From NCBI GenBank assembly GCA_963836075.1, contig CAWIIB010000009.1, positions 1,952,001 to 2,016,000 of the forward strand: a stretch of 64,000 bases of DNA. The letters run 5' to 3'. The notes beneath the pieces were generated by a model. That model was not told the DNA's origin and ran no database searches. It saw only the letters and a list, made by a program, of their open reading frames with translations. Below are positions 29,222 through 55,249 of the stretch, one piece after another (within the stretch, counting starts at the first letter, position 1; each line of letters starts with the position of its first letter). The stretch comes from an uncultured Acidobacteriota bacterium (lineage in GTDB: Bacteria; Acidobacteriota; JAQAZP01). A program made the translations under genes and the position numbers.

Positions 29222-31006
29222 TCATGGTGCAATGGCGGTGACCGTCACGTTCGCACTGTCCGTATCTCCTGACGGCATATAGGGCGGCTGGTTGTACGGC
29301 GCCTGGGTCACGTCTTCCAGCTCCAGGGTGAAGCCGTTGTGCCCGATCATCGAGCTGATGGCGGGGATGGTGCTGTACCAGGACACGTTGAAAGCTTCCC
29401 CCGGCGAAAGCGTGGTGGATCCCGCACGCCAGTTGTTGACCTGTGAGCCGTTGGCCAGCAGGATGTTCATCCGCCCCGCCACCCGCCGGAACTGGTCGTC
29501 CAGCAGGTTGTACATCGTGGCCCGGAACCGGGTGCTGAAGGGCGCCGTGCCCGAGCAGGGCAGGCAGCCCAGGGCGGCGTTGATGGTTCCCAGGCCGCCG
29601 AGAAAGCCGTTGGCGTCGACCCACTGGGCGTAGATGTCCGTATCGACTCCAGAGCGTTCGTCGGACCAGGTGATGATCGCTCCACCCGACCCGTCACTGG
29701 CCACCCTGGACCAGTATTGGTCTTCGACTGCACTGCAGATCGGGATGCCGTTGGCGGCCCAGTGGGTGTTGCCGAACCAGTCCACGTGCTGGGCGTAGAT
29801 GTCCAGTGCGCCTGACGTGAAGCGATCGTCCGTCCAGGAGATGATTACGCCGTCGTTTTCATTCCGTGCGATAGACGGGTCAGATTGGTCATTGAATGCG
29901 CCGCAGACCTGGATCCCCCCTGCGAGCCAGCGCTGCCCGCCGTTGGTGTTGATCCTTTGTGCGTAAATGTCAGCATCCCCGTTGCGGTTGTCCAGCCAGG
30001 CGAAGACCGCTCCACCAGTGTCATCCGGAACCACTTCGATATATTGGCCGTTGTCATTGGCCGCACTTACCGGTACCCCGTCCACAGCCCACTGAACGGT
30101 CCCGTCCGTGCCGATCTTTTGCGCGTAGACTCTGTATTCCAGCGGAACGGGATCGCCCACCCAGCCGATGATTGCTCCACCGGTGCTCGCGCTGACGATC
30201 CGGTGCCATTGCTGGTCTCCCGCGGCGGTACAGATCGCCACGCCGCCGGCCGTCCACTGGGGCACACCGGAACCGTCGATCCGCTGGGCATAGATGTCGT
30301 AATTCGAGGCGCGATTGTCTACCCAGGTGATGATGGCGCCCCCGGCCCCGTCGTTTGTCAGCAAAGGGTCGTATTGGCCCTCGGCTTCCGTGCAGATCGG
30401 AACACCGTCGGTTGTCCATTGAACCACTCCGAAGCGGTCCACCCGCTGAACATAGATGTCGCGGTCGTTGGTTTCGTTGTCGCGTGAGTCATCCCAGGCG
30501 ATGATCGCGCCACCGGCACCATCGCTTATCAGCCTTGGATCATACTGGATTGACCCAGCCGAGCAGATCGCCACGCCGTCGGCGGTCCAGAGAAGCATTC
30601 CGCCGGCGCTCACTCGCTGGGCATAGATATCGGCAGGGGACGTCGGCCCACCATACCAGGTGATGATCGCACCGCCGGTGCCGTCGCTCACCAGAGCCAT
30701 CTCGTAGTTGATGTAGCCTGCGTTATAGATCGAGACACCGTCTGGGGCCCACAACTCATTCCCCTCGGAGTCCAGTCGCTGGGCAAAGATCTCACAGTCC
30801 AACCCTGATCCGAAGCGCTCGTCCCGCCAGCAGAGGATCGTGCCGCCGGCCCCGTCACCGATGCTCCACATGTATTTCTGGTCCCCGATCTCGGTGCAGA
30901 CCGGGGTGTTCACGGTGGGGTCCTGGGACCAGGCCGCAACCGCCGGCACTGCGCACATACCGGTAAGGATGACGATGATGATCATTGTGATGGCATTGAG
31001 TTTCAC
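29222..31006 (-). CDS. Secreted beta-propeller repeat protein with C-terminal module A
   Basis: About 7 repeats of DGxGGAIIxWxDxR...DIYAQR; GGAGGAG RBS before GTG; ends PYNQPPY...TAIAP. Confidence 0.8.
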   Translation of the reverse strand: MKLNAITMIIIVILTGMCAVPAVAAWSQDPTVNTPVCTEIGDQKYMWSIGDGAGGTILCWRDERFGSGLDCEIFAQRLDSEGNELWAPDGVSIYNAGYINYEMALVSDGTGGAIITWYGGPTSPADIYAQRVSAGGMLLWTADGVAICSAGSIQYDPRLISDGAGGAIIAWDDSRDNETNDRDIYVQRVDRFGVVQWTTDGVPICTEAEGQYDPLLTNDGAGGAIITWVDNRASNYDIYAQRIDGSGVPQWTAGGVAICTAAGDQQWHRIVSASTGGAIIGWVGDPVPLEYRVYAQKIGTDGTVQWAVDGVPVSAANDNGQYIEVVPDDTGGAVFAWLDNRNGDADIYAQRINTNGGQRWLAGGIQVCGAFNDQSDPSIARNENDGVIISWTDDRFTSGALDIYAQHVDWFGNTHWAANGIPICSAVEDQYWSRVASDGSGGAIITWSDERSGVDTDIYAQWVDANGFLGGLGTINAALGCLPCSGTAPFSTRFRATMYNLLDDQFRRVAGRMNILLANGSQVNNWRAGSTTLSPGEAFNVSWYSTIPAISSMIGHNGFTLELEDVTQAPYNQPPYMPSGDTDSANVTVTAIAP

Positions 31007-31241
31007 TGCTGGCTCCTCCCTTGATAGAGCATATAAAGGCATGGGCGGTGAGTCCCGAAGAACCGGGATCATTGCCCCTCATACAGATAAGCGACATGGA
31101 GGTGAAAATCCGGACAGGGGATTTTGTGGTTGGATATCAGCCCGGCATTCAGGCCGCTGCCTTTTCTTTCAATATAGGGGTACGTTACGGTAGGAGGCCA
31201 GTGAAAAACCTGCAAATCAGCAGTGTCTGAGAAGCGAATTG

Positions 31242-32534
31242 ATGAAATTCAATGCTTTCCAAAAAAATGTTCTTTTGATCATTATTGTGCTCGGTTTAGC
31301 TCAGGGCCTGTTTTATGCCTGGAATGTGGTGATGACCTCGGACCAGGAGCAGCTGCTGGCCAAGGGCATCAAGCTGGCCTTCTTCGGCCAGTGGGAGCAC
31401 TACGGCAATTTGATCACCAGCGGCGGCAATGTCCCGGGCAGCCTGACCACCTCACTGGTCGGGCTGCCGCTGATGCTGGTGGACAGCCCCATGTCCCCCC
31501 AGGTTCTGGTGGGCCTGCTGCAGCTGGCGAGTCTTCTCCTGTTGATCGGGGCCCTGAAAGGGACATTCACGCCGCTGCAGATCATCGTCTTTGCGGGCCT
31601 GTTCTGGCTTTCGCCCTGGCGGGTCTCAAAAGCGATCCTCTGGAACCCCTCCTGGCTCTTCCTGGCCACGGCGCTTCACCTTTACACCTTTGACCGGCTG
31701 GTCAAGAAACCGAAATCATTCTGGATGAGCTTTCTGCATATCCTGGCCATCGGCTATGCGTTCGAGCTGCACCCGTCAGCGTTGCTGCTGGCGATCATGA
31801 GCGGCTTCCTCTACCTGCGGAAGGTCTTTCGCGTCAACTGGCCAGCGGTTGGCCTGGCCATAATTCTCATCCTGATCTCGCTGGTCCCCTGGTTCATGAC
31901 CCTGCAGGGCAACGAGAGCCTGGCCCCGCTGGTTGATGAGGGGCTGGGGAACTTCCACTACGGCTTCGGATTGACCCACCCCTTTTCACTGCTCAAGGGG
32001 GTGATGTACTGGCCGCGTTACACGTCGTTCGTTTTCCCGCATTTCATTTTCTCCAATCTCGACTATTCCCGGTTCGGCGGGGCGGGGATGCAGGGCGCGG
32101 TGAGAAACGGGTTCGATTCCCTGCGCTGGCTGCTGGGCGGTATCAGCATTTTCTTTTGTCTGTGGGGATTCGGCTGGCAACTGCGGAGGATCTGGCAGCA
32201 GAGGTTCAAGTGTCCCGCACCACTGGAGAACTACATCCTGGCTGGCCTGATCGCCATGGTGCTGCTGGTGGTGCTCAGCCCTGCCGAACTGAGCCACTGG
32301 CATCTCTACCTGCTGTTGCCGGTGGCCAATATCGCCTTTTGCCGGTTTCTGTTCCAGCGGTTCCACTGGCTGGCGGCCGGCACGGCCCGGGCACTGTTCA
32401 TTACAGTGATGATCTACTTCATCCTATTCAACGTCATGGCCAATTTCATTGCGCCGAACTACTACTCGCCCACGTTCAATATGCGAACCGAGTATGCCGC
32501 CACCAAGGCGTCCTTCGGGGTGGTTGGGGACTAG
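31242..32534 (+). CDS. Polytopic membrane protein, probable GT-C fold glycosyltransferase
   Basis: About 10 hydrophobic segments, N-terminal SDQE loop, LWNPSW motif. Confidence 0.55.
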   Translation: MKFNAFQKNVLLIIIVLGLAQGLFYAWNVVMTSDQEQLLAKGIKLAFFGQWEHYGNLITSGGNVPGSLTTSLVGLPLMLVDSPMSPQVLVGLLQLASLLLLIGALKGTFTPLQIIVFAGLFWLSPWRVSKAILWNPSWLFLATALHLYTFDRLVKKPKSFWMSFLHILAIGYAFELHPSALLLAIMSGFLYLRKVFRVNWPAVGLAIILILISLVPWFMTLQGNESLAPLVDEGLGNFHYGFGLTHPFSLLKGVMYWPRYTSFVFPHFIFSNLDYSRFGGAGMQGAVRNGFDSLRWLLGGISIFFCLWGFGWQLRRIWQQRFKCPAPLENYILAGLIAMVLLVVLSPAELSHWHLYLLLPVANIAFCRFLFQRFHWLAAGTARALFITVMIYFILFNVMANFIAPNYYSPTFNMRTEYAATKASFGVVGD

Positions 32535-32550
32535 CCGCTGCGGTGATGTT

Positions 32551-33717
32551 TCAGGGTGCGATCCCGGTCACCGTGCAACTGTCCGAAGCCGTGTCGCCGG
32601 CCGGCGGGTAGGGTGGCTGGTTGTATGGCTCGGGGGTGACATCTTCGGCCAGCAGCAGGAAGTGGTTGTCCCCGATCACCGAACCGAGGGCCGGGATGGT
32701 GAGGCCAAAGGTGCTGGCGAAACTCTCCCCGGCCGCCACGTTGGTGTATCCGGCACGCCAGCCGGGGAACCAGGCGCCACCGGCCAGGGTGACGTCGATG
32801 CGGCCGGCAATCCGGCGCCGCTGCCCCTGGTAGAGGTTGTCCAGGGTCAGGGTGATCAGGGACTGGAACGGCACCGTGCCCGATGAGGGCGAGCAGTCCA
32901 GGGCGACGGAAACGGTTTCGCCGGGAACCGGGGATGTGTTGGGAACCAGGTTGTCCACGGCGGCCCGGTTGCTGCCCGAGGCTCTCAGCTGCAGCCACAT
33001 GGTGTCCCAGGTCTCCGGCCCGGCATCGGGATGCAGCCGGCCCAGCTGGAGGTTGATCCCCTGCAGTCCGCTCACCGCCTGGAACTCGGTGTCGCCGTCG
33101 GTGATGTTGAGATAGAACAGGCTCCCCGCCCCCTCTCCGCCGTTGGCGGTGAAGTCGATGCGCAGTTCCATGCGGTACCAGTCATTGCCGCTGTTTCCTG
33201 CGCCAAAGGGCGTGGATGTGGACGCGCCGAAGTTGGCCTCCCGCAGAGTGAAGTTCCTGTCGTAGTCGCCGAAGACCGGCCCCAGCTCGCCGCCGCTGCC
33301 GTTGCTGTAGGGGTCCTCTTCCAGGACGCCGTCACCGTCCAGGTCGTGGCCCAGTCCGAAGAGGGCGAGGTGCTCGCCGTTGAGCTCGAACCGGATCACC
33401 GCATCGGTGGCGGATGAGTTGAACGCCGTGAAACCGAATGCGGTATCGTTGGCCCGGGCGAGATAGACATCCTCGTCAAAGGCCACGGTGGGCAGCGGAC
33501 GGGCGACTTTTGTATCATTGCCGGTATCGTCGAGGTAGATCACACCATCGCCCTGGCCCGGTTTGTCCACCCAGTTGTCATGGCCGTCAATAAAACTGTG
33601 GATCGACAGGGATTCAAAATCGTAGACCTCGGGCGTCTGTGCCGACACCGGGGAGTTCCCGCAAAAAACAGCAATGATAAAAAGCGCGGCGGCCAATACT
33701 TTCCACGGGTGATACAT
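32551..33717 (-). CDS. Secreted hypothetical protein (beta-rich) with C-terminal module A
   Basis: Signal peptide; ends WRAGYTN...PYNQPPYPP...TGIAP. Confidence 0.75.
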   Translation of the reverse strand: MYHPWKVLAAALFIIAVFCGNSPVSAQTPEVYDFESLSIHSFIDGHDNWVDKPGQGDGVIYLDDTGNDTKVARPLPTVAFDEDVYLARANDTAFGFTAFNSSATDAVIRFELNGEHLALFGLGHDLDGDGVLEEDPYSNGSGGELGPVFGDYDRNFTLREANFGASTSTPFGAGNSGNDWYRMELRIDFTANGGEGAGSLFYLNITDGDTEFQAVSGLQGINLQLGRLHPDAGPETWDTMWLQLRASGSNRAAVDNLVPNTSPVPGETVSVALDCSPSSGTVPFQSLITLTLDNLYQGQRRRIAGRIDVTLAGGAWFPGWRAGYTNVAAGESFASTFGLTIPALGSVIGDNHFLLLAEDVTPEPYNQPPYPPAGDTASDSCTVTGIAP

Positions 33718-33786
33718 CTTCATCCTCATACGTTCAACCGCAAATTCATCAATTTCCAACTCTTCCGATTATACCCCTGAATATAA

Positions 33787-33821
33787 ACAGGGAACCAGGG
33801 CTTTGGACCCCGGTTCCCTGT
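33787..33821. terminator. Hairpin downstream of the peroxidase operon
   Basis: ACAGGGAACC/GGTTCCCTGT inverted repeat. Confidence 0.5.
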
Positions 33822-33856
33822 GTTATGGTCACGCTGAATTACTGTCCCGGCCGTCC

Positions 33857-34270
33857 TCAGTGCTTGCCCGGGGCGATGGCCACCCCCTTGCGCTCGGTCA
33901 TCAGGTAGGCCTCGATGGCGATCATCTCGGCGCTGTCCAGGTCCAGCGGGTCCCCCTCCAGCGGGTTGCGCAGGCACCAGTTGATCATGTCGCGCAGGGC
34001 CACCACCTTGCCCAGTTGCTGCTGGAACTTGGGGTAGGTCTCGGGGTGGGTGTTGGCTCCGTTGGGGTGGCACTGGCCGCAGGCCACGCCGTTGGTCCCC
34101 AGGTCACCGCTGCCCCAGAGTTCGCGGCCGTAGGTCACCACACTCTGGTATTCCTTGTCCCAGCGCTTGAGATCCTCCTCGGTGAACTCGTCGGTGCGCA
34201 CCACCACGCTGGCCAGCGCCACCGACAGGACGAGCACCACCACTGCGACTCCGGCATATTTTTTCCACAT
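33857..34270 (-). CDS. Periplasmic monoheme cytochrome c (SoxA-like domain)
   Basis: CGQCH heme motif, TYPKF and INWC motifs, signal peptide. Confidence 0.85.
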   Translation of the reverse strand: MWKKYAGVAVVVLVLSVALASVVVRTDEFTEEDLKRWDKEYQSVVTYGRELWGSGDLGTNGVACGQCHPNGANTHPETYPKFQQQLGKVVALRDMINWCLRNPLEGDPLDLDSAEMIAIEAYLMTERKGVAIAPGKH

Positions 34271-34282
34271 GGCTCACTCCTA

Positions 34283-37266: not shown

Positions 37267-39556
37267 TCAAGGTGTATCGAAAATACCCCCCGCCACCGTC
37301 CCTCCGCAGAGCAGCCCTTGGTCGGCGTAGGCGTCGAACTCGACCACACTCATCGCTTCGGTGTACAGATTGGTGACCCGCCAGGCCGCAACCATGGCCG
37401 GCTCCCGGCTGTCCGGCCCCGGGACGGTGATGATATCGACGATCCCGTCGCCGTGGACGTCGGCGGCGGCCACGCGGACACCGCAGCGGGTGTCGTCATA
37501 CTCGTAGGCGAAGTAGTTCACCTCCGGCATCGCGGTGACCCCGGCGCCGTCATAGTGCCAGCCGCGCACCTGGGCGCCGAAAACGGGGGAGGGGCCCGGG
37601 CCGGTGAGGATCTCATCCCGGCCGTCACCGTCGATGTCGCCGCAGGCCACGTTGACCCCGTATCTCAGGGTGCCGTAGGCGAAGTAGCTGATCCCGGTGA
37701 TCGGCTGTGCCGCTGTACCGTCGATGTTCCAACCACGGACGTGGGGCCCGAACACCGGGCCGGGGCCGGCACCGGTGACGATCTCGTCGATACCGTCGCC
37801 GTCGATGTCGCCGCAGGCTGTGTTGACGCCCCACTTGAGGGTGCCGTAGGCGAAAAAGCTGACCCCGGGGACCGGCTGAACTGCAGCGCCGTCCACGTTC
37901 CAGCCGCGGACGTGGGGCCCGAACACCGCACCGGGCCCGGCGCCGGTGACGATCTCGTCGAACCCGTCACCGTCGATGTCCCCGCAGGCCACGTTCACCC
38001 CGTACCTGTTCGTGCCGTAGGCCAGGTAGCTGACCCCGGGCACCGGCTGGCCAGATGGGCTGAAGCCCCGGACGTGGGGGCCGAAGATGGCGCCCGGGCC
38101 CGGACCGGTGACGATTTCGTCCAGGCCGTTGCCGTCCAGGTCGCCGCAGGCCACGTTGGCTCCCCAGGCCTGGGCCCCGTACGCCGCCCACGATTCGAGC
38201 GGGATCTCGTCGCCCAGCGGATCGAAGCACCTGACCAGCGGCGGATTGATCGCCGCCGGCCCCGGGCCGGTGACCAGGGTCAGCACCGGGTAGTCCAACT
38301 CATCGTAATACGCGTGGAGAAATTCGTCCCAGGCCGTGTCGGCGGGGAAGTCGAGCTCTACCGCTTCGGTACTGCGGGTCGTACAGCCGCCCGCTCCGGG
38401 GAAAGGAAATGCTCAGGCCGCGGGCGTTTTCCTCGATCGACCCATGGCATTCGGCCACCACCGCGGTTTCCATGGCGGTGCGCACCGCCTGGAGGTCGTC
38501 GAGGATCACCGGGTCGTCGGTCAGTCCGGCCAGCTGTTCGGCGAAGTGGTGGACGTCGATCAGGCCGTAACGTTCGGCGCCCCAGAGGCAGAACTCCTGG
38601 GAGCGGTGGCGGGCCAGACGAATCGGATCGACCAGCGTATCGAGGCGGGGGATCAGGTCGGTGGCCAGCTGGTCGATGGCCGCGGCGGCCCCGGCCATTG
38701 CCGAGGTGTCGGTGGCGCTCATGGTCAGGTAGGTGTAGTCCTGATAGTAGTTGTTCTCCCCCACCAGCCGGATGAGCTCCGCCCCCAGCTCCGCGGACGG
38801 AGTGTCCGGCGCGGCAATGAGCGTGTCGCAGAAGCCGTCGAAAATCCCGTTCCAGCGGGCATATCCGCTCAGTTCCTCGCTGCCCACGTAGACCCCCACG
38901 CTCTCCCGCAGTTCGTAGACCGACTCGAAGCAGCCCATCAGGCAGGGGGCGGTGAAACAGAGCAGGTCCACCGGCCCCGCCTCGCCCAGCGCCAGCTGGA
39001 AATCGTTCATGGTCAGGATGTCGTCGCCGTCGGTTTCGTCAACGCAGGCGCCCCGCCAGGCGCCACCATGGTCGTAGCAGGCCAGCAGGTAGCGGTCTGC
39101 CGGGTAGTTTGCCTTCGCGTAGAGCAGGAAATCCCGCAGCGTGTCGGGGTGGCCCATGTTCAACTCGCCGAGGTCGTCCAGCCTGGTCATCTCGTGGTTC
39201 TCACCGATGTGCCAGATGTCGGCTTCCCTGTAATCCCCGTCCCTGAGAACGAGGACGTTGAGATTCGGTCCCGAGTGGGCGTCCCGGGCGAAATCGTTCA
39301 GCGGGTCGTAGGCGTAGTAGAAGTCGGCGTCGTCGTAGAGGAGGATGGTCCAGGTGGTGGCCCCGGGGGAAGGGTTGGGCCGTTCAGGCACTTCCACTGA
39401 CGGGCGGAGTCGGTGGACCGGCCGGTCCTTTGCCTCGAGGACGCGCAGGGAATCGTTCGGCGAGGGGTAGAACCCGCTTCCCCGGATCTCATCCCCCTTG
39501 GCGGTCGGAGGGAGAAGGACGATGGCCAGCAGCAGGACAAAGAGGGTGCGGATCAT
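37267..39556 (-). CDS. Clostripain-like (C11) peptidase with C-terminal module B (apparent frameshift near 38368)
   Basis: ELNMG, DHGGAW and APCLM motifs; removing one C restores collinearity with the paralog at 39553..41748. Confidence 0.82.
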
Positions 39557-41748
39557 TGGAGTGTACCTCCGGCAATGGTTCCCCCGTGATTCAGCCCCAG
39601 GTCGACGTAGGCATCGATCTCGGCCCGGTTGACCGCAATCACGGTACCATTGGACATGCGCCAGGTGAGAACCAGGGCCGGTTCGTCGGGGTCTGGTCCC
39701 GGGACGGTGAGTATCTCGTCGATGCCGTCGCCGTGGATGTCGGCGGAGGCCAGCTGGACACCGTAGCGGGTAAAAGCGAAATAGTAGGCGAGGAAGTTCA
39801 CTTCGGGCATGGGTGAGACCGAGACGCCGTCATAGCGCCAGCCGCGCACGTGGGCGCCGAACCGATTTGACGGCCCCGGTCCGGTGAGGATCTCGTCCCT
39901 GCCGTCTCCATCCAGGTCGCCGCAGGCCACGTTGACTCCCCACCTGTTGGTTCCGTAGGCGAAATAGCTGACGCCGGGGAGCGGTTGGGCCGCAGCACCG
40001 TCCACGTTCCAGCCGCGCACGTGGGGCCCGAACACCGTGCCGGGGCCGGCGCCGGTGACGATCTCGTCAAAGCCGTCGCCGTCCAGGTCGCCGCAGGCCA
40101 CGTTGACCCCCCACTTGAGGGTGCCGTAGGCGAAGTAGCTGACACCGGGGATGGACTGAACTGTCGTGCCATCCACGTTCCAGCCGCGGACGTGGGGGCC
40201 GAAGACCGCGCCGGGTCCGGGTCCGGTGACGATTTCATCGTATCCGTCCCCGTCCAGGTCACCGCAGGCCACGTTGGCGCCATATTTGTTTGTGCCGTAG
40301 GCCAGGTAACTCACCCCCGGGACCGGTTCGCCGGTGGGGCTGAACCCGCGGACGTGGGGGCCGAAGATGGCTCCGGGGCCCGGTCCGGTGACGATCTCGT
40401 CAAAGCCGTCGCCGTCCAGGTCGCCGCAGGCCACGTTGACCCCCCAGGCCTGGACACCATACGCATGAAAATGACCCTGCATGTCGCCGAATTCCACCGG
40501 GTCGAAGGTCCGGACCAGGGGCGGGTTCTCCGCCCCGGGACCGGGTCCGGTGACGATCATCTCCGCCGGCAGGCCCAGGGCGTCGTAGTAGGCGCCCAGG
40601 AACTCGTCCCAGGCGGTGTCGTCGGCAAAATCGAGCTGCACCGATTCATAGGCCGGGTCGTAGAGCGGCCCGCCACGGTGATAATAGACAGAGAGCCCAT
40701 GGGCCCGCGCATGGATTGGCCCGTGGCACTCGGCCACCACGGCGTCGTCGATGGCCGCTTGAACGCTCTCCAGGTCCTGGAGGATCACCGGGTCGCTGGT
40801 CAGGCCGGCGAGCTGATCGCAGTAATCGTGGAGATCCACCATGCCGAGGTGGTCCGCATACTCCTCCCCCATTTCGTGCGACTGGTTGCGGGCCAGCCGG
40901 AGCTCATCGGTGAGTGAACCGAGGCGGGGGATCAGGTCCTGCCCCAGTCTGTCCACGGCCGTGGCAGCCACGGTGGTGGCGCTGGTGTTGACGGCGCTCA
41001 TGGTCAGGCGACGGTGGTCCTCCCAGTAGTCGTTTTCATCCACCAGCCGAATGATGTCCGCCCCGATGCTTGCTGACGAGTCATCCGGGGAGGAAATGAG
41101 CCGGTCACAGATATCGCCCATGATCTCCAGCCAGTAGATGTAGCCGCTCAACTCTTCGCTGCCCACGTAGATGTCGACGCAGTCCCGCAGCTCGTACGCC
41201 GATTCGATGGCGCCCATGTTGCACGGCGCGGTGAAGCAGATCAGGTCCACCCCCCCGGCCGCGGTGAGTGCCAGCTTGAAGTCGTTCATCGAAAGTTTGT
41301 CGTCGCCGTCGGTGTGGTCGCGGCACGCCCCGGACCAGCCTCCGCCGTGACCGTAGGCGGCCAGCAGATGGCGGTCGGCAGGATAGTGTGTCTTGCCCCA
41401 TTCGAGGAAGGAGAGCAGGGTGTCGGGGTGGCCCATGTTCACCTCGCCCCAGTCCTCGAGGTGGGTCAGTTCGTGATTCTGGCCGACGTGCCACAGGTCA
41501 GCCGGTCCCGCATCCCGGTCCCGCAGGACGATCACGTTGAGGTTCGGCCCTGAGTGGGCGTCCAGGGCAAAGGGCTCCAGCGGATCGAAGGCGCTCTCAA
41601 AATCGGCGTTGTCGTAGAAAAAGAGTGTCCAGGTGGTGCCGCCGGGGGATGGTTCAGACGCCGCAGCGGGAGCGCAGACAAGCAGGGCCAGAACCAGGAC
41701 GGCGGTGAGATTCATCCGGCTCAGAAAGCGCGGGGTAAAACGTAGCAT
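39553..41748 (-). CDS. Clostripain-like (C11) peptidase with C-terminal module B
   Basis: EVNMG, GHGGGW, APCNM, GSEE and GLSVY motifs; GDLDGDG repeats. Confidence 0.85.
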   Translation of the reverse strand: MLRFTPRFLSRMNLTAVLVLALLVCAPAAASEPSPGGTTWTLFFYDNADFESAFDPLEPFALDAHSGPNLNVIVLRDRDAGPADLWHVGQNHELTHLEDWGEVNMGHPDTLLSFLEWGKTHYPADRHLLAAYGHGGGWSGACRDHTDGDDKLSMNDFKLALTAAGGVDLICFTAPCNMGAIESAYELRDCVDIYVGSEELSGYIYWLEIMGDICDRLISSPDDSSASIGADIIRLVDENDYWEDHRRLTMSAVNTSATTVAATAVDRLGQDLIPRLGSLTDELRLARNQSHEMGEEYADHLGMVDLHDYCDQLAGLTSDPVILQDLESVQAAIDDAVVAECHGPIHARAHGLSVYYHRGGPLYDPAYESVQLDFADDTAWDEFLGAYYDALGLPAEMIVTGPGPGAENPPLVRTFDPVEFGDMQGHFHAYGVQAWGVNVACGDLDGDGFDEIVTGPGPGAIFGPHVRGFSPTGEPVPGVSYLAYGTNKYGANVACGDLDGDGYDEIVTGPGPGAVFGPHVRGWNVDGTTVQSIPGVSYFAYGTLKWGVNVACGDLDGDGFDEIVTGAGPGTVFGPHVRGWNVDGAAAQPLPGVSYFAYGTNRWGVNVACGDLDGDGRDEILTGPGPSNRFGAHVRGWRYDGVSVSPMPEVNFLAYYFAFTRYGVQLASADIHGDGIDEILTVPGPDPDEPALVLTWRMSNGTVIAVNRAEIDAYVDLGLNHGGTIAGGTLQ

Positions 41749-43704: not shown

Positions 43705-46575
43705 GTGAAACTGCTCAGATACAGCTTGCTGGCTCCTGCTCTGTTGATCGTGGCCCTGCTGGCCGGACCGGGTGATCTCCTTCAGGAGATGGCCGCCGGC
43801 GAGCACCGGCTGACCGAAGTCCAGCGGGAAGCGACCCTCCTGGCGCTGGAAGAAAAGCGGGCCCGGCTGGAAGCGCGGAAACTGAAACCGATGGACCAGC
43901 CGCAGGAAGCGGCGGAGTTCTTCCTCCAGCAGCGGTTGGAGCCGGGGCAGGACAAACTGCCGGTGGGGCGGATGCGGGCGGAGCTGGAGGGGATCAAAGC
44001 TCGTGAAGCGGCACTGGCTGGTGAGGACCGGGAAAGGGGACCGGGCGGCATCTCCAGCTGGCAGTCCATCGGGCCGGGCAACATCGGCGGCCGCACCCGC
44101 TCCATCGTCATCGACCCGGACACCCCCGACACGATGTACGCGGGCGGGGTGGCCGGCGGGATCTGGAAGTCCACCGATGCCGGGGCCAGCTGGAACGCGG
44201 CCGACGACCTGATGCTCAACCTCAGGGTCTGCGCCCTGGCCATCGACCCCACCAATACCAGTGTGCTCTATGCCGGCACCGGTGAGGGTGTGTTCAGCGG
44301 CAGTGGCACCGGAGGCCTGGGCATCTTCAAGTCCACGGATGCCGGGGCCAGCTGGAACCAGTTGGCCGGGACGGTGAGCGGCGTGCCCGAGGGTGCGTTC
44401 AATTTTGTCAACGAGATCGTGATCAGTCCCAATGACTCCAGCCGCCTCTACGCCGCCACCCGCACCGGGGTCTGGCGCAGCACCGATGCCGGGGAGAACT
44501 GGTCCCACCTGCTGGGCAACCCGCGGCATCTCTCGGGCCCGTACAACTCCAACGGGTGTGTGGTGGGCTGCAGCGACCTGGCCGTGCGCAGCGACCGCAA
44601 CCCGGACACGCTCTTTTCCGCCTTCGGCATCTACGAGTCGGACGGGCTCTACCTCTCCGAGGACGGCGGCGACTCCTGGATCGGTTACACCACCGGGCCG
44701 GAGCAGGGCCGGATGGAGATCGCCATCGCGCCGAGCAACAACGACGTGATCTACCTCACCATGGCCGACAACGGCACCGCTGTCCAACTGGGGCGGCTGA
44801 TCAGTGTCTTCCGCGCCGACGACGGCCTGAACTTCAGCGCGGTACTCGACCTGGAACACCCCTTCAGCCCCTGGCTGTTCAGTTACCTGGCCATCGCCAC
44901 CGGCTGCTACGAGCACCCGACAATTTACTCCCAGGGATGGCACGACAATGTCATTGCGGTGGATCCGATCAACCCGGAGATCGTCTGGGTGGGCGGTATC
45001 GACCTGTTCCGTTCAGATGACGGCGGCCAGACCTTTGGCCTGGCCAGCTACTGGTTCTACTTCCTCTGGGATCCCCAGCCCGCCACCTATGTGCACGTGG
45101 ACCAGCACGAGATCGTCTTCCATCCCGGATACAACGGCCTCAGCAACCAGATCATGTATGTGGGCAACGACGGCGGCGTGTGGCGCACGGCCAACGCCCG
45201 GGCCGCCACCACCGAGGAGGAGTGCCCCATCGGTCCGGACCCCGGCCCGCCGCCGGAGATCGTCTGGGAGAACATGAACAACGGCTACGGGGTGACCCAG
45301 TTCTACCACGGCGATGCCGCCCTGACAGCCGACCGCTTTGTGGGTGGTGCCCAGGACAATGGTTCGGCCCAGGTGCTGTCTGCCGGGACCCCGGACAGCT
45401 GGGAATACGTGTACAGCGGCGATGGCGGGTACGTGGCCATCGACCCGCGGGACGACCGGCACTACTTCGTCGAGATCCAGGGCTTTCCCACAATCGCCGA
45501 AACCAACAACGGCGGTATCTCATTCAGTCCAGCGGTAAACGGTATCACCGACACCGACGGCATCTTCATCAACCCCTTTGCCATGGACCAGTCCAATCCC
45601 GACGTCATCTGGACCGGCGGCCGCCGCCCCTGGCGCACCATCGATGGCGCCGGCCTGTGGGAGCTGGCCGGGCCCAATTTCAGCGGTGCGGACAGACTTA
45701 CGGCCATCAATATTTCCCCGGCGGACAGCAACGTGGTCTGGTTCGGCTTCAACAACGGTTATGTGGCCCGGACCACCAACGGTCTGGCCGAGAAGCCGGA
45801 CTTCGAGGTCTTTGCCAACGGCCTGCCGGGCGGGTGGATCAGCAGCGTGGCCGCCGACCCGGTGGACACCGAAACGGCTTACTGCACGATCTCCTCATAT
45901 GGCGTGCCCCACGTGATGAAGACCACTGACGGAGGCAGCAACTGGGCCTCCATCGACGGCATCTCGGTCACCGGCGTGCCCGACATCCCGGTGCACTGGA
46001 TCGCCGTCCGTCCCGGCAACCCGCAACAGCTCTACGTGGGCACCGAGTTCGGCGTCTTTGCCAGCGACGATGGCGGGGGAACCTGGTTCCCGGCCAACAC
46101 AGGGCTGGCCCACACCATCGTGGAATCTCTCGACTGGAAGGATCCGGACACTCTGGTGGCCTTCACCCATGGCCGCGGGGCCTACGTCACCCACCTGGAT
46201 AGCATCGCCACCATCGATGCGGCCCTGGTCTGTGAGCCCTCCACCGGCACCCTGCCCTTTGTCACCCAGCTGTGGGTCACCCTGGGCAATCTCTACGCCG
46301 GGCAGACCCGGCGGGTGGCCGCCCGTCTGGATGTGCAACTGGCCGCGGGTGCCTACTTTCCGGGATGGCGCGCGGGATACACCAACATCGGTCCCGGGGG
46401 CAGCTATTTCACCTCCTGGAACCAGAACCTCCCGGCCCTGGGTACACTGGTGGGAGAGAACGTCTTCACCCTGGCTGCCGAGGACGTGACGCCGTCACCC
46501 TACAATCAGCCGCCCTATCCGCCGGCCGGGGATACCTGCACTTCGCAGCAGATTTTCACTGCTCTGGCGCCCTAA
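43705..46575 (+). CDS. Secreted BNR/VPS10-like propeller protein (glycosyl hydrolase-like) with C-terminal module A
   Basis: GPGNIGGR, repeated SxDGGxxW Asp-boxes, HVDQH, GGAQDNG and THGRG; ends TALAP. Confidence 0.85.
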   Translation: MKLLRYSLLAPALLIVALLAGPGDLLQEMAAGEHRLTEVQREATLLALEEKRARLEARKLKPMDQPQEAAEFFLQQRLEPGQDKLPVGRMRAELEGIKAREAALAGEDRERGPGGISSWQSIGPGNIGGRTRSIVIDPDTPDTMYAGGVAGGIWKSTDAGASWNAADDLMLNLRVCALAIDPTNTSVLYAGTGEGVFSGSGTGGLGIFKSTDAGASWNQLAGTVSGVPEGAFNFVNEIVISPNDSSRLYAATRTGVWRSTDAGENWSHLLGNPRHLSGPYNSNGCVVGCSDLAVRSDRNPDTLFSAFGIYESDGLYLSEDGGDSWIGYTTGPEQGRMEIAIAPSNNDVIYLTMADNGTAVQLGRLISVFRADDGLNFSAVLDLEHPFSPWLFSYLAIATGCYEHPTIYSQGWHDNVIAVDPINPEIVWVGGIDLFRSDDGGQTFGLASYWFYFLWDPQPATYVHVDQHEIVFHPGYNGLSNQIMYVGNDGGVWRTANARAATTEEECPIGPDPGPPPEIVWENMNNGYGVTQFYHGDAALTADRFVGGAQDNGSAQVLSAGTPDSWEYVYSGDGGYVAIDPRDDRHYFVEIQGFPTIAETNNGGISFSPAVNGITDTDGIFINPFAMDQSNPDVIWTGGRRPWRTIDGAGLWELAGPNFSGADRLTAINISPADSNVVWFGFNNGYVARTTNGLAEKPDFEVFANGLPGGWISSVAADPVDTETAYCTISSYGVPHVMKTTDGGSNWASIDGISVTGVPDIPVHWIAVRPGNPQQLYVGTEFGVFASDDGGGTWFPANTGLAHTIVESLDWKDPDTLVAFTHGRGAYVTHLDSIATIDAALVCEPSTGTLPFVTQLWVTLGNLYAGQTRRVAARLDVQLAAGAYFPGWRAGYTNIGPGGSYFTSWNQNLPALGTLVGENVFTLAAEDVTPSPYNQPPYPPAGDTCTSQQIFTALAP

Positions 46576-47661: not shown

Positions 47662-49410
47662 ATGGCAAGGTGGCTGTGCATCAAGCTGCCGTCGGTGATT
47701 CTCCTGTCCCTGCTGCTGGTGGTTGCCTCGGTGTTTTCCGGGGCAGCATTTGCGGCGGAGGATCTGGAGATCATCCAGGCGGTGAAGAACGGTACCCCCG
47801 TTTCGGGGGGCAATCGGGTGGTCATGGGCGAGGTGTTCGCCCGCGACGGCTGAGCGTACTGTCCCTCTGCGGAGCAGGGGATGATAGACCTCTTGGCCAA
47901 CTTCGGTGACGACGAATTCGTCTGTGTCATGTACTACTCCACCAGCGGCTGGTCCTGCCCGGAGCACGGCGACCGTGCCGGTCTCTACGGTGTGAGCGGT
48001 GTGCCCGACGCTTATTTCAGCGGTTATCTTAACTCTCTCGGCGGGCTGCCCAGTGGCTCGATGTATGACTACTACCTGCCCCTGGTGAACCAGGTCATGG
48101 CCAATCCCGGTATGTTGGCAATGTCACTGGACATGACCATCGATGCCGGTACCATCACCGTCAACGGCACCATCGAGGCCCTGGAAAACGCCCCCGATGC
48201 CCTCGTCTACGTCGTGGTCTACGAAGAGGACTCGGGCCGTGAGCCGAACCTGGCCCGTGGCTTCCCGGTGTGGGAGACCATGCTCACCGCCACCACCACC
48301 GGCGCGACCCAGGACATCAGCGGCACCCTGGCCGTGGGCACCGGCTGGAACGAGGCCAACCTCCACGCCATCATGTTTGTCCAGGCCCTGCAGGACTTCA
48401 CGGCCACCCGGATCGTCACCGGTCCCGGCCCCGGCCCGGACAACGTCTGCCGCCTGGCCGCCTGGGTCCCGGAGAATCCAGGCACTGCCGACGTGACCAT
48501 CAACGCATACGGCGTGGACAAATACGGCGTCAACGTGGCCGTGGGCGACCTCACCGGCGATGGCTTTGACGAATTCCTCACCGGTCCCGGACCGGGCGCG
48601 GTCTTCGGCCCGCAGGTGCGCGGTTTCAACTACGAAGGCGACCAGCTCCCCGGCCTCAGCTATTTTGCCTATGGCACCCTGAAATACGGGGTCAACGTGG
48701 CTGCCGGCGACTTGGACAATGACGGTGTGGCCGAGATCCTCACCGGCGCCGGACCGGGCGCGGTCTTCGGCCCCCACGTTCGCGCCTGGAAGTACAACGG
48801 CAGTGAGGTGAGTTCCATGCCGGGGATCAGTTACTTCGCCTACGGCACACCAAAGTATGGTGTAAACGTGGTCTGCGGTGACATCGACGGCGACGGTTTT
48901 GACGAGATCATCACCGGTGCCGGACCGGGCGCGGTCTACGGCCCGCACGTGCGCGGCTGGAACTACGACAATGACACCCTCACCTCGATTCCCAGTGTGA
49001 GCTTCCTGGCTTACAACACCAACAAGTTCGGCGTAAACGTGGCCTGCGGTGACATCGACGGTGACGGGATGGACGAGTTGATCACCGGTGCCGGCCCCGG
49101 CGCGGTCTTCGGGCCGCACCTCCGTGGCTGGAACATCGACGGCGGTACGGTCACGGCCATTTCCGGAATCAACACCATGGCCTTCGACTACACCGAGTGG
49201 GGTATCAATGTTGGTTGTGGAGACGTGGACCGTGACGGCATGGACGAGATCTTTGTCGGTGCCGGTCCCGGCGAGGCCCACGACGCCTGGGTCCGCGGCT
49301 TCAACTATGACGGCGGCACGCTGGAGATGGTGTATGACTTCACCGCCTACGGCGCCCCGGTCATCACCCACGGTGTCAACGTGACCTGTGGCTACTTCTT
49401 CGCCCCGTAA
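47662..49410 (+). CDS. Secreted selenoprotein: Omp28-like thioredoxin domain (UAYC) with C-terminal module B (582 aa, Sec64)
   Basis: ORFs 47632..47853 and 47881..49410 are in frame: RVVMGEVFARDG-TGA-AYCPSA; YGVSGVP cis-Pro motif; GAGGAGG RBS and signal peptide. Confidence 0.88.
47861..47882 (+). promoter_or_regulatory. Putative bacterial SECIS hairpin
   Basis: GUCCC-U(bulge)-CUGC-GGA-GCAG-GGGAU starting 7 nt after the UGA. Confidence 0.7.
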
Positions 49411-49445
49411 CGTAAACGTCGTCGGTACTGCTACCGGCTAACCAG

Positions 49446-49483: not shown

Positions 49484-49520
49484 CTGAAGGCAATCGCTGC
49501 CTGTCGCCATTTTCTGCACT

Positions 49521-49623: not shown

Positions 49624-49631
49624 AGAGGGGA

Positions 49632-50987: not shown

Positions 50988-51270
50988 TTTCTTTTTCGCT
51001 GGTGGCTCAGTGTTGTGGTCTGATTGGTCACAGCGTGGAACGGCATCTATTCTGGCAGGGCCCTGGCTTCTTGTCGAGGGTACTGTTTGGAGCTTCGACT
51101 GACCATTGCCCCGGTGGTGAAAAATCCATTCATCCGGTAGAATATCGGCATCAATCCGACTATACGTTGCCGTGTCTGATTCAACTGCTGGCGGTCATCT
51201 TTGTACCAAACGCCGTAACGGCGTTGATCTTTAGATCCGTGATGACCAGATCACACAAGGAGGGACGGAT

Positions 51271-51966
51271 ATGACCATGTCAAGGAAACTGACCGCCGAG
51301 TTCATCGGCACCTTCTGGCTCGTGCTGGGCGGGTGCGGCAGCGCCGTGCTGGCGGCGGCCTACCCTGAACTGGGAATCGGCTTTCTGGGGGTGGCGCTGG
51401 CCTTCGGGCTGACCGTGCTCACCATGGCCTTCGCCATCGGCCACATCTCCGGCTGCCACCTCAACCCTGCTGTCTCCATCGGCCTCTGGTCCGGCGGCCG
51501 GTTTGCGGCAAAGGATCTGGTGCCCTACATCATCGCCCAGGTGGCTGGCGGCATCGCCGGCGGCGCGGTGCTCTACATCATCGCTTCGGGAAGCGGCGCT
51601 TTCGACCTGGCCGGCGGTTTTGCCTCCAACGGCTATGGCGCCCACTCGCCCGGCGGGTACAGCCTGCTGTCGTGCCTGGTGGCCGAAGTGGTGCTGACCT
51701 TCATGTTCCTGCTGATCATCCTCGGCTCCACCGACGAACGGGCGCCGGCCGGCCTGGCCCCCGTTGCCATCGGCCTGGGGCTGACCCTGATCCACCTGAT
51801 CAGCATCCCGGTGACCAACACATCGGTGAACCCGGCCCGCAGCACCGGTGTGGCCGTCTTTGTCGGCGGCTGGGCCACGTCCCAGCTGTGGCTCTTCTGG
51901 GTGGCCCCGATTATCGGCGGTATCCTGGGCGGGATCGTCTACCGCTGGATGGGCAGCAACAAGTAG
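51271..51966 (+). CDS. aqpZ: Aquaporin Z
   Basis: [17 protein letters not shown], two NPA motifs (HLNPAV, SVNPARS). Confidence 0.97.
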
Positions 51967-52010
51967 CCGGCCGAGTTCCACGAACGAATCGACTGGAGTT
52001 TTTCACAACC

Positions 52011-53123
52011 ATGTTCAAAAACAATTACGGTGTCAATCACCACCGAACCCTGATCTGTTTGGCGTTCCTTGTTGTGGCACTCTGTTGCGCCGCCAACCCG
52101 GCCCTGGCCGCCGAGGAAGGCTGGCAGCCGCCGCCGCCCGAACCGGTCGCTTTTGACTGGGTCCAGCTGGTGTCCGGTGAGTGGCTCAAGGGAGAGATCA
52201 AATCCTTTGAAGACGATGTCCTTGAGTTCAAGAGCGACAAGCTTGGAGACCAGTCGCTGTCCTGGGACGACGTGGCCCAGGTGCGTTCCATGCGCGTCGT
52301 ACAGGTACTGCTTGCGGACGACCGCAGTTACGTGGGCCGGATCATTGTCGCAGATGGAGCCGTCCAGGTGCTCGGTGACCAGGGGCAGGAATTCGAACGA
52401 GCGGATTTGGTGAGGTTCATCGTCGGTGAGCCGAAGGAGATCAATTTCTGGTCCAGCACGATCAACCTGGGCGCCAATTTCCGCAAGGGCAACACCGATG
52501 CGGTTGATATCAACACCCAGATCAAGGTCCAACGGCGCTCGATCAAAAACCGCCTGATTTTCGACTACATCGGGAATTACAACGAGCTGGAGGGAGTCGA
52601 ATCGGGCGACAACCAGCGCCTGGCCGTCACGTGGCACCGGTTTCTCACTGCCCGGCTCTTCCTGATGCCCGTCTTTGGCGAATACTACCGGGACCCGTTC
52701 CAGAACATCGCTTTCCGTGGTTCCATCGGTACCGGCGTGGGGTATACGCTGGTGGACACGGCCAAAGTTGACTGGGATGTGTCGGGTGGTCCGGCATACC
52801 TGCGGACGGATTACGATGAGGTTGAGGAAGGCACCAGCGACTCGGAGAGCACAGCGGCCTTTGTGGGTAACACAGTGCTGACCGTGGAACTGGTCAAGTG
52901 GCTCGATTTCAACTACGACTACCGCTTTCAGATCGTCAACGAGGAAAACGGGACTTACAACCATCACATGGAGGCCGGCTTCAATACCGACCTGACCGGG
53001 CCGCTGAGCTTGAACACTTCCATAGTCTGGGACCGGATCCAGGATCCCCGCGCCAATGCTGACGGTGACGTTCCCGAGCAGGACGATTTCAAGCTGATCG
53101 TCGGCCTGGCCTTCGATTTCTAG
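52011..53123 (+). CDS. DUF481-family outer-membrane beta-barrel protein
   Basis: Signal peptide, DWVQLVSGEWLKGE, GNT, terminal Phe (GLAFDF). Confidence 0.75.
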   Translation: MFKNNYGVNHHRTLICLAFLVVALCCAANPALAAEEGWQPPPPEPVAFDWVQLVSGEWLKGEIKSFEDDVLEFKSDKLGDQSLSWDDVAQVRSMRVVQVLLADDRSYVGRIIVADGAVQVLGDQGQEFERADLVRFIVGEPKEINFWSSTINLGANFRKGNTDAVDINTQIKVQRRSIKNRLIFDYIGNYNELEGVESGDNQRLAVTWHRFLTARLFLMPVFGEYYRDPFQNIAFRGSIGTGVGYTLVDTAKVDWDVSGGPAYLRTDYDEVEEGTSDSESTAAFVGNTVLTVELVKWLDFNYDYRFQIVNEENGTYNHHMEAGFNTDLTGPLSLNTSIVWDRIQDPRANADGDVPEQDDFKLIVGLAFDF

Positions 53124-53144
53124 CGGTTCCCTCGGCAATTCCTG

Positions 53145-53178
53145 AAGCCCGTGGCAAGATCCCCTGTCACGGGCTTTT
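53145..53178 (+). terminator. Intrinsic terminator
   Basis: AAGCCCGTGGCA/TGTCACGGGCTT stem ending in a T-run. Confidence 0.7.
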
Positions 53179-53368
53179 CCGTGGGATAGTCTATTGCTAC
53201 GGGTCGGCGTACCGAATCACTGCCGTTTACCAAGCCCACAGCATGGGCGGCCTGATCTCCCGTTCCACCGGGTTGCGGTCCGCCGGCAGAAAACCTATAT
53301 TGAACGTGATCAAAGCGGTTCCCGCCTGTGGTTTTATTAATCCTGGTTACGAGTCGGGGGTATCGGTC

Positions 53369-55249
53369 ATGAAACGGGATTCGGGTAATAGTGTTTTTTT
53401 CTTGGCCGTGGTCCTGTCAATTGTTGCGCTGCTCGGGCTTTCCACTGTTGCGACGGCCCTGGACACCATTGGCAGCGCCGGGGGCGGGCCGCTGGACGGC
53501 ATGCTCCAGGTGCAGGTGCTGCACGCCGGCACGGGCGCACCCTTTGCCGGGGCCTTCGTTATGGTGGGTGATGCCCCCGGATCCCCTTTTGCCGGCAACT
53601 GGGGCGTCACCTCGGCTTCCGGTGACATCACCTTTACCGACCCTGCCCTCCAGGGGCCGCTCACGGTGACCGCCGGGGCCGCGGGGCACCGCTATGTCAC
53701 CATGGTCCTCGCCGACGCCAGCCAGCTGGTGCTGGCCCTCGAGCCGGTGGCCTCCCTGACCTTCCTCTCCGAAGTGGGGGACTATGTGTCGGGGGTGGAC
53801 GTGGACAACGGGACCTTCAACTTCGGCGACGGAAACGTCGATGTGGCCTTTGTGCTGCGGGCCATGACCCTCGACGACATGATGTCCTTTGACATGGAGA
53901 ACATGTTCGGGCCGGAGGAGTTCATCGATATCCTGGGCCAGCCGTTCCCGGTGCCCTCCAACGTCTTCATCCCCCTGCAATACGAAACCTTCATCCCCAT
54001 CGTCAAGGACCACTACTACCTGTACCTGACCCCCGGGGACGCCACTCTGGCCGCGCTCTCCGGCCGGATGCCGCTGGCTGAGCTGGCGGCCGGCGGCGAG
54101 ATGGTCGACCTGCTGCCCCACATCCAGTGGCGGGAGATGGACGTGCTGGACATCACGGTGGCCGGCGACACCTCCGACGCCGACCTCACCGTCGACCCGG
54201 ACCTCAGCGCAACCGTGACCCTCAACCTGGACAACATTCCTGATGGTTGCACCGGGTTCGGGCTCTCCATCGGCGACCTGGATGGCCTGAACGGCCTGGG
54301 CCGCCTGGTCCCCCTGGGCATGAGTTCCATCGGCTGCCCTGACGGCAGCGGTCCCTGTTCGGGCACCCTGACCCTGACCACCGCCGCCGCCACCGGCGAG
54401 CTGGCCGGCATGGGCTATTTCCCGGCCGCCGCCGTGCAGGGTGACCTGACCAACGATGCGCTCTTTGTCATGGACCGCTCTTCCCACAGCCAGACCTACA
54501 CGGCCACCATCGATTCCTTTTACAACCGTCTCGACCTGGCCTACGGGGCGGGCGGGTTCGCCTGGAACGATGCGGAAAACGCCGCCACCGGCAGCCCGGT
54601 TGTGGACCTCCAGCTGGCCCTGATCTCCAACCCGTTGAACGACGAGGTCTACTGGGAGTTTTTGCTTCCCGGGGGAGCACTCTCCCTGACAATACCCCAG
54701 CTGCCGCCCGAGGCCCCGGCCGGCCTGGTACCGGGCACCGGCTACAACTGGGCTCACACCGCCCTGGGACTGGCCTACGACCTGGCGGTCTTCGACTACG
54801 GGGATTTCGCCTTCTCGGCCATCATTGCCCATGTCAGCCATCTGGCAACCAACAGCCTGGACATCACCTGGGACGCGGCCGGCACGGTCTCCGCGTCCCT
54901 GAGCTGCCTGCCGTCCTCCGGCACCGTTCCCTTTGCCACCGGCATGCAGGTCATGCTGACCAACCTGTACAGCGGCCAGAGCCGCCGGGTGGCCGGCCGC
55001 CTCGATGTCCTGCTGGCCGGCGGCGCCAATTACGGCAACTGGAGGGCCGGCTACACCAATCTCGGTCCGGGGGAAAGCTGGAGCGCTTCCTGGAACACCA
55101 CCATCCCGGCCCTGGGCAGCGTGATCGGTGAGAACAGTTTCACCCTGGTGGCGGTGGATGTGACGCCGTCCCCGTTCAACCAGCCGCCCTACCCGCCGGA
55201 CGGCGATTCGGACCAGGCGGTCTGTCTGGTCACCGGGGTTGCGCCCTGA
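53369..55249 (+). CDS. Secreted hypothetical protein with C-terminal module A
   Basis: Signal peptide, carboxypeptidase-regulatory-like N-terminal strands; ends PFNQPPYPP...TGVAP. Confidence 0.75.
   Translation: MKRDSGNSVFFLAVVLSIVALLGLSTVATALDTIGSAGGGPLDGMLQVQVLHAGTGAPFAGAFVMVGDAPGSPFAGNWGVTSASGDITFTDPALQGPLTVTAGAAGHRYVTMVLADASQLVLALEPVASLTFLSEVGDYVSGVDVDNGTFNFGDGNVDVAFVLRAMTLDDMMSFDMENMFGPEEFIDILGQPFPVPSNVFIPLQYETFIPIVKDHYYLYLTPGDATLAALSGRMPLAELAAGGEMVDLLPHIQWREMDVLDITVAGDTSDADLTVDPDLSATVTLNLDNIPDGCTGFGLSIGDLDGLNGLGRLVPLGMSSIGCPDGSGPCSGTLTLTTAAATGELAGMGYFPAAAVQGDLTNDALFVMDRSSHSQTYTATIDSFYNRLDLAYGAGGFAWNDAENAATGSPVVDLQLALISNPLNDEVYWEFLLPGGALSLTIPQLPPEAPAGLVPGTGYNWAHTALGLAYDLAVFDYGDFAFSAIIAHVSHLATNSLDITWDAAGTVSASLSCLPSSGTVPFATGMQVMLTNLYSGQSRRVAGRLDVLLAGGANYGNWRAGYTNLGPGESWSASWNTTIPALGSVIGENSFTLVAVDVTPSPFNQPPYPPDGDSDQAVCLVTGVAP

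Follow-up and report, generated by a model that had tools for sequence, protein, structure and literature searches.

An uncatalogued Ig-like C-terminal domain, a candidate sorting or anchoring tag on secreted proteins of one Acidobacteriota genus

Introduction

LPXTG, PEP-CTERM and dockerin tags, S-layer homology (SLH) domains and the C-terminal domains (CTDs) of type IX secretion system (T9SS) cargo have each led to a dedicated envelope machine or receptor. Here we analyse a domain of about 122 residues that closes four proteins encoded in a 64,000-nucleotide stretch of DNA (the window) from an uncultured Acidobacteriota bacterium (GCA_963836075.1, contig CAWIIB010000009.1, positions 1,952,001 to 2,016,000), and that an earlier note on this DNA had put forward as a lineage-specific export, anchoring or docking tag. 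Judged by its sequence, the domain is uncatalogued and new among C-terminal sorting and anchoring tags, itself an already known class.

By its fold and role as given in PMC4804311, PMC5562754 and PMC8545088, the type A CTD of the T9SS (PF18962/FlgD_ig-type) is a folded immunoglobulin (Ig)-like C-terminal sandwich on diverse Sec-exported hydrolases and adhesins, which is also how the domain studied here presents itself. The two take the same slot in orthologues from different phyla. They differ, however, in that the tag has no PF18962 or TIGR04183 match in the four carriers, in 35 aligned members or in the whole genome, is longer (about 122 residues against a 75-position model), and adds a cysteine pair and an invariant proline-rich loop. 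Moreover, PorV was not found in a sample of 41 genomes of the phylum, and the sole PorU-like protein scores below the model cut-off and does not share the distribution of the tag.

The type I dockerin (PF00404) is likewise a C-terminal module of many secreted enzymes that is strongly conserved among the paralogs of a genome, and among 120 listed orthologues of the BNR-propeller carrier described below, 4 have it at the position of the tag. Whereas the dockerin is helical and binds Ca, the tag is predicted to be all-beta and has no Dockerin_1 match; no cohesin-like receptor or scaffoldin turned up, cohesin not having been searched for. PEP-CTERM and IPTL-CTERM signals consist of a short motif, a transmembrane helix and a basic tail, with exosortase-type processing. 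They resemble the tag as alternative C-terminal endings of orthologous passengers (P0262; P0394 and P0404), but the tag is a soluble 122-residue domain without a transmembrane segment, and no exosortase was found in the genome. Finally, the Ig-like domains of the CARDB, FnIII and macroglobulin types (3idu; RbmA, 4be5) belong to the same fold class, with Z scores of 9.8-11.4. CARDB domains are usually internal repeats, whereas the tag is fixed terminally, has no CARDB match by hidden Markov model (HMM) and reaches a profile-profile probability of 1%.

Results

The four copies lie at 29222..29587 (-), 32551..32916 (-), 46210..46575 (+) and 54884..55249 (+), two on each strand, and translations together with a four-way alignment confirmed that they encode the same terminal domain. 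All four extend to the stop codon, with 45 of 126 alignment columns invariant and a mean column identity of 71%. The alignment recovered the consensus proposed earlier as the segments TxxAxLxCxPxxGTxPF, NLYxGQxRR, WRAGYTN, PALG, DVTPxPYNQPPYPPxGD and (I/V)AP-stop. Copy 1 (121 amino acids plus stop; E 3.5e-66) forms the 3' end of the open reading frame (ORF) 29222-31072, copy 2 the end of ORF 32551-33759, copy 3, in which the second conserved cysteine is missing, the end of ORF 43705-46575, and copy 4, the top row of the alignment used for folding, the end of ORF 53243-55249, where it makes up residues 547-668 of the product.

The passengers are unrelated to one another, as had been claimed, the best pairwise BLASTP match among the four having an E value of 0.26. 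Carrier 1 (29222-31072 (-), 616 amino acids) has a DGxGG-type repeat passenger that is propeller-like, although all repeat matches are below threshold; its true start is probably internal, at the signal-like segment VKLNAIT...AVAAW. The passenger of carrier 2 (32551-33759 (-), 402 amino acids) has no family match and follows the signal-like segment MKMYHPWKVLAAALFIIAVFCGNSPVSA. Carrier 3 (P0003; 43705-46575 (+), 956 amino acids) has a Sortilin-Vps10/BNR propeller, the sole family above cut-off among the four passengers, and also an NCBIfam match to an F510_1955-like glycosylhydrolase that is below its own cut-off. Carrier 4 (53243-55249 (+), 668 amino acids) probably starts at MKRDSGNSVFFLAVVLSIVALLGLSTVATA and has a weak CarboxypepD_reg-like match in Pfam (19.1 bits, against a cut-off of 32.3). 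Read by eye, all four show a basic N-region and then a hydrophobic stretch after a possible start, in line with the signal peptides assigned to them before.

The strongest evidence that the domain may serve as a tag comes from its exchange for other endings in orthologues of the same passenger. We searched with the passenger of an M28 peptidase carrier (P0175, residues 30-465) and with that of the BNR carrier (P0003, residues 110-830), and the counts that follow cover 120 listed orthologues for each query. The M28 orthologues are 46-84% identical over the whole passenger and share a common boundary, ...AATLAEVAG(L/I)Q, after which their tails differ. Five end in the new domain (P0195, P0015, P0173, P0211 and P0240), as does P0259 with an extra 17-residue tail. 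A T9SS-type 'NPFNPQ...' CTD (PF13860, in some with PF18962) occupies this position in 91 of the 120, by hand count, and several of these are named Krumholzibacteria. P0254 has a long extension, and P0262 ends in a VPAMSP-transmembrane-RR tail that we take to be of the PEP-CTERM type.

Among the BNR orthologues, three carry the new tag, 19 have PF13860 (some of them with Por_Secre_tail as well), four PF00404 and two PF18203, and 92 end in an unannotated tail. Direct scans of BNR orthologues placed FlgD_ig at residues 874-931 of 943, Por_Secre_tail at 862-942 of 945, Dockerin_1 at 852-906 of 908 and IPTL-CTERM at 861-889 of 897 (P0394 and P0404 being of the IPTL-CTERM type). These comparisons show directly that the tag holds the same position as sorting or docking tags of four known kinds. 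Among orthologues, constraint on the tag is similar to that on the catalytic or passenger part, at 85-87% against 82-84% for M28 and 72-78% against 82-87% for BNR.

The same exchange is seen inside the genome, where 75 of 166 carriers have a paralog without the tag (35% identity or more, across no less than 60% of the passenger). In 49 of these 75 the alternative ending is an FG-GAP tail of about 330 residues that is common to 119 proteins. This FG-GAP/VCBS tail family, which typically ends in ...HG..VAAGRF, is found on the same types of passenger (C25, C11, PNGase-F-like and beta-helix). Its genes are found beside carriers slightly more often than expected by chance (15, against 7.4 +/- 2.6), and five of them lie in the window, at 37270-38298 (-), 39556-41748 (-), 47881-49407 (+), 58302-60404 (-) and 60400-62472 (-). 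A further 48 proteins of genome G000 end in another common tail, ...(L/M)(R/K)(A/S)LGY(L/I)(Q/D).

The domain recurs in the 6.23-Mb genome far beyond chance, because 197 near-full copies are present and 190-191 of them lie at the extreme C-terminus. An HMM built from the four window copies was run against six-frame ORFs of at least 60 amino acids (53,244 ORFs) and matched 224, of which 197 hold a near-full domain; 191 of these copies are C-terminal, 184 finishing exactly at the stop codon. Two of the six 'internal' copies are followed by only 7-8 extra residues, two sit where a frameshift seems to interrupt the gene, one opens a tandem pair, and a single copy is truly internal. A second HMM, from a 35-row alignment, gave 190 terminal carriers, and by a crude gene caller the carriers amount to 186 of 4,924 called genes (3.8%). 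Copies are not often internal or in cytoplasmic proteins, and no match to a characterised domain with a non-sorting role appeared.

The 190 paralogous copies share 47% mean pairwise identity, with 15 columns conserved to at least 95%. Proline is the final residue in 163 (86%), the terminus is 'AP' in 111, and none has a low-complexity linker upstream of the domain. The first-strand cysteine is present in 81% of copies and the last-strand cysteine in 72%; 127 copies have both, 27 neither and 36 a single one (odds ratio 14). We infer from this sequence pattern that a disulfide links the two.

Frameshifts or in-frame stops seem to break many genes of the assembly, for example at C1:1790644-1793680, C9:884932-886657 and C4:26628-26996 of G000. 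The apparent breaks appear as split carriers, out-of-frame C-termini of paralogs and partial tag matches, which makes indel errors of assembly more likely than pseudogenes.

Carrier proteins span many exoenzyme and surface families. By precomputed Pfam assignment they include the peptidases Peptidase_M28, S8, C1 and M23, together with cellulase GH5, BNR sialidase-like proteins, GDSL lipase, metallophosphatase, arylsulfotransferase (ASST), FGE-sulfatase and GSDH. CotH with LTD, beta-helix/NosD, FG-GAP/VCBS and PA14 families are also among them. A crude heuristic marked the N-terminus as signal-like in 134 of the 170 carriers with long passengers and in 888 of 2,268 background ORFs; by heuristic, two of 166 carriers are lipobox-like and two Tat-like. 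The terminal position of 190 of 197 copies, the exoenzyme and adhesin carriers and the tag swapping in orthologues together support, at the level of sequence, the tag role suggested by the earlier note.

The earlier note did not recognise the domain, and searches bore this out. Pfam and NCBIfam gave no matching model for the tag in the four carriers, a Pfam scan of the 35 aligned members at E <=5 returned only four single-member chance matches, and the tag profile had one chance match among PDB sequences (E 0.65). The strings YNQPPYP, NQPPYPP and PYNQPP did not occur in the literature searched, and a search on Acidobacteriota C-terminal sorting domains and secretion returned nothing relevant among the matches listed.

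AlphaFold2, given the 35-row alignment, predicted an all-beta domain of eight strands with a mean predicted local distance difference test (pLDDT) score of 94.2 and a predicted template modelling (pTM) score of 0.84, in agreement with the Ig-like nature proposed earlier. Residues 98-113 of the model form a long, confidently modelled loop that holds the invariant proline-rich motif. Comparison by Foldseek and VIA-align gave a flat list of Ig-like sandwiches, with 68 chains at Z >=8. The top match was the second FnIII domain of the Vibrio cholerae matrix protein RbmA (4be5; Z 11.4, root-mean-square deviation (rmsd) 2.3 over 108 residues; TM 0.73 by Foldseek), followed by the AlkC Ig-like domain (Z 11.0), a transglutaminase barrel (11.0) and macroglobulin MG domains (9-10); T9SS CTDs, SLH domains and dockerins were absent among the structural matches listed. 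The CARDB domain 3idu (Z 9.8, rmsd 2.5 over 99 residues) lies inside this flat list, and the nearest ESM Atlas clusters are CARDB/DUF11/NPCBM_assoc (0.86-0.89), which we treat as a lead only.

Membership of CARDB (PF07705) was tried and rejected. Against 13 genuine CARDB domains drawn from relatives (the tally behind this set includes an unpublished genome, G025, from which no particular result is drawn), hhalign gave a probability of 1% with E 0.054 over 16 columns. By HMM, none of the 35 members matched at E <=5 and the genome had no match at E <=1e-5, the control being positive in four genomes. By sequence, then, the tag forms an orphan family, and its predicted fold is a common one of the Ig/FnIII/CARDB-like kind.

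The distribution of the tag is as lineage-specific as had been proposed. All three species of the genus carry it, and a profile search at E <=1e-5 found at least 106 copies in each of the two sister species but none in the 38 other genomes of the phylum. Searched through their records, the sister species hold 112 and 138 copies. Tag-bearing sequence was also present on two metagenome contigs of 930 kb and 436 kb, which hold P0211 and P0005. An exhaustive HMMER search matched 502 of 1,835,955,588 public protein representatives at E <=1e-3 and 373 at <=1e-30; among the best 150, 144 finish with the domain, eight hold tandem copies and three have it internally.

A search of one genome per GTDB species kept 72 loci. 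The two sister assemblies, one of which has the label Acidobacteriota, account for 70 of these. One further locus, on a 4.2-kb contig rich in guanine and cytosine (GC) of a Candidatus Sulfomarinibacteraceae metagenome-assembled genome (MAG), may be a binning error. The last belongs to a 255-kb contig from an unclassified low-GC MAG of 1.0 Mb (G042), which encodes two paralogous proteins of 515 and 532 amino acids (L107, 1810-3357 (+); L150, 1495-3093 (-)). Both have signal-like N-termini, FG-GAP_2 repeats and a diverged tag at the C-terminus, with 43% identity, PSPYNQPPYPPSGDTDTDAC nearly unchanged and an MGVQ ending instead of AP. A small organism, perhaps attached to a host, may have acquired the tag horizontally; more speculatively, a low-GC and possibly outer-membrane-less organism of this kind might have taken it up as a means of docking to the same receptor at the surface.

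We then looked for machinery that might act on the tag. In the T9SS core, PorV is the shuttle, SprA the translocon and PorU the sortase; PorU cleaves the tag, and the cargo is linked to anionic LPS. PorV (PF19572) had no match in any of the 41 phylum genomes, with a positive control in B. thetaiotaomicron. Por_Secre_tail was found in one of the 41 (G019) and not in the source genome, with silent control genomes; SprA_N had no matches, but its control was silent too. FlgD_ig gave a single sub-threshold match in the genome search, and Exosortase_EpsH none, the control being positive only in M. jannaschii. No recurrent C-terminal signal of the transmembrane type was seen among 96 candidate tails. 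Secretins are present, two strong and one weak.

No outer-membrane or envelope machine was enriched among the gene neighbours of 186 carriers. The enriched neighbours were beta-helix/FG-GAP paralogs without the CTD (20 of 41 adjacent), regulators and C25 peptidases, most C25 paralogs being themselves cargo, either as carriers or as FG-GAP-tail proteins. CHAT-TPR proteins had a carrier within three genes in six of six cases, usually together with genes for an extracytoplasmic function (ECF) sigma factor and a zf-HC2 anti-sigma factor; two of these loci are G000 C9:1160157-1164050 and C1:2214450-2217458. The C25 (gingipain) family as a whole is strongly expanded in G000, with about 14 or more paralogs, and the window holds one such gene at 25553-29104 (+), with PA14, C25 and three PKD domains.

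Three candidates for the partner were examined. One untagged C25 peptidase, g838 (914 amino acids, secreted), scores 202 bits against the PorU model NF033707 (cut-off 420; profile positions 106-733). It belongs to an operon-like cassette on the minus strand of G000 (C1:1016001-1036000, genes at 10745-16803) that encodes a 72-residue peptide, a PqqD-radical SAM/SPASM protein, an HprK-related kinase A, the C25 peptidase and an S24/S26-like peptidase, and that resembles a peptide-maturation locus of the ribosomally synthesized and post-translationally modified peptide (RiPP) kind. G001 has a 65%-identical orthologue of g838, but the sister species G002, which is 100% complete, has no full-length one, and similar proteins occur in 17 of the 38 tag-free relatives.

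The genome also encodes two fusions of about 2,180 residues (G000 C9:2267534-2274076 and C9:1011957-1018484), in which an AsmA/TamB-like N-terminal part, POTRA repeats and an Omp85 barrel form one polypeptide. They are phylum-wide, occurring in tag-free relatives too, with full-span relatives of about 2,170-2,720 residues in several other genomes of the phylum (the tallies include G025). In this phylogenetic profiling for co-occurring machinery, a check that had been proposed with the tag hypothesis, g838 and the TamB-Omp85 fusions both failed. A gene for a DUF481 barrel upstream of carrier 4 was discarded as well, one of its four paralogs lying beside carriers and no recurrence being seen.

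Discussion

By analogy with dockerins and SLH domains, the domain may be a lineage-specific C-terminal tag that retains secreted proteins non-covalently on the cell envelope, a reading to which we give an even chance of being right. The Ig-like sandwich of about 122 residues would fold autonomously and provide a common address or anchor for most of the Sec-exported exoproteome of the genus. Carriers would cross the inner membrane through Sec with ordinary cleavable signal peptides and, on a heuristic basis, would not be lipoproteins; the tag would fold in the oxidising periplasm, where a disulfide between its first and last strands may clamp the fold. The loop D-V-T-P-x-P-Y-N-Q-P-P-Y-P-P-x-G-D, together with the RR and WRAG motifs, may form one recognition surface for a single common partner. 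That partner would be a cell-envelope ligand, either glycan or protein, and enzymes and adhesin-like proteins alike would be held on the surface non-covalently. Passage across the outer membrane would follow a general route, secretins being available, and the tag would not be a T9SS cargo signal. We prefer docking to a transient export signal for several reasons: the tag is highly conserved between paralogs, it is constrained to about the same degree as the catalytic domain in orthologues, tandem copies occur, the loop survives in G042, a small genome that may lack an outer membrane, and no co-distributed translocon was found.

Several points weigh against this reading. The partner of the tag was not found in any search made, and the docking step draws on analogy and on patterns of conservation. 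The strict terminal position and the terminal proline of 86% of copies would be explained equally well, or better, if a translocon or peptidase recognised a free C-terminus. The signal-peptide heuristic is home-made and, with a background rate of 39%, lends weak support only, and the p-value for co-occurrence of the two cysteines is overstated because paralogs are not independent. As for G042, its copies could be recent transfers without function; the finding of no Omp85 candidate there, against 5-7 matches in each of three other genomes searched, is weak evidence, since this unclassified genome may be incomplete.

The carriers follow the same grammar as T9SS cargo, with a Sec signal and a terminal Ig-like domain on roughly 100-200 diverse exoproteins per genome, and T9SS-type CTDs occupy the same position in orthologues of other phyla. 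The tag might accordingly direct translocation across the outer membrane by an undiscovered system that is analogous but unrelated to the T9SS, which would recognise the folded domain, perhaps through its proline terminus, and maybe cleave it after export. Such an explanation is favoured by the strict terminal position, with proline last in 163 of 190 copies, and no T9SS that could account for export was found; yet no co-distributed machinery came to light either, since g838 and the TamB-Omp85 fusions fail and no outer-membrane gene recurs beside carriers. The two copies in the tiny G042, without an Omp85 candidate, also count against it, as does the conservation of the tag among paralogs, which probably exceeds that of T9SS CTDs. 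On balance we find translocation by such a system somewhat unlikely, though it is the main rival. That the tag is the cargo signal of an undescribed Acidobacteriota system for outer-membrane secretion and attachment, independent of T9SS and exosortase and with its machinery among unannotated envelope proteins, we hold to be unlikely.

Binding could also be directed outwards, the tag acting as a module like a carbohydrate-binding module (CBM) or adhesin on an external polymer or particle rather than on the cell's own envelope. One common substrate is hard to reconcile with carriers that range over peptidases, lipases, phosphatases, sulfotransferases, glycosidases and non-enzymatic propellers, although CARDB/FnIII/MG/CBM-like sandwiches are common among binding modules and the conserved W, Y, R, N, Q and D residues may resemble glycan-binding sites. 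Tandem copies, and the keeping of the domain in an unrelated small genome, would suit such a module. Substrate-binding modules are usually not restricted to the last residues of a protein, whereas 190 of 197 copies here lie at the extreme C-terminus; moreover, orthologues exchange the tag for endings of the sorting or docking type and not for CBMs. We therefore consider external binding decidedly doubtful.

The match to the second FnIII domain of RbmA (Z 11.4), the best in the structural search, raises the further idea that the domain, like RbmA, associates with itself and in this way ties secreted proteins together in a surface layer or biofilm matrix. This match is not specific, because the structural list is flat (68 chains at Z >=8), and nothing else points to self-association, which we regard as very improbable; a predicted complex of two tag copies (score 0.02, mark 0.42) bears neither way on it.

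An uncatalogued tag on about 4% of genes, in a phylum sample in which no T9SS was found, therefore points to an undescribed receptor or an undescribed route of export or attachment. The tag HMM reads out the exoproteome of these organisms (peptidases, glycosidases, lipases and sulfotransferases) straight from sequence, and the tag-swap series offers clean natural controls for tag function. Generality is limited by the narrow range of the tag, one genus and a few stray copies.

Other features of the window

Two radical SAM/SPASM genes lie in the window, at 13510-14706 (+) and 24447-25439 (+), the latter directly downstream of a gene of the S9 prolyl-oligopeptidase family at 21952-24426.

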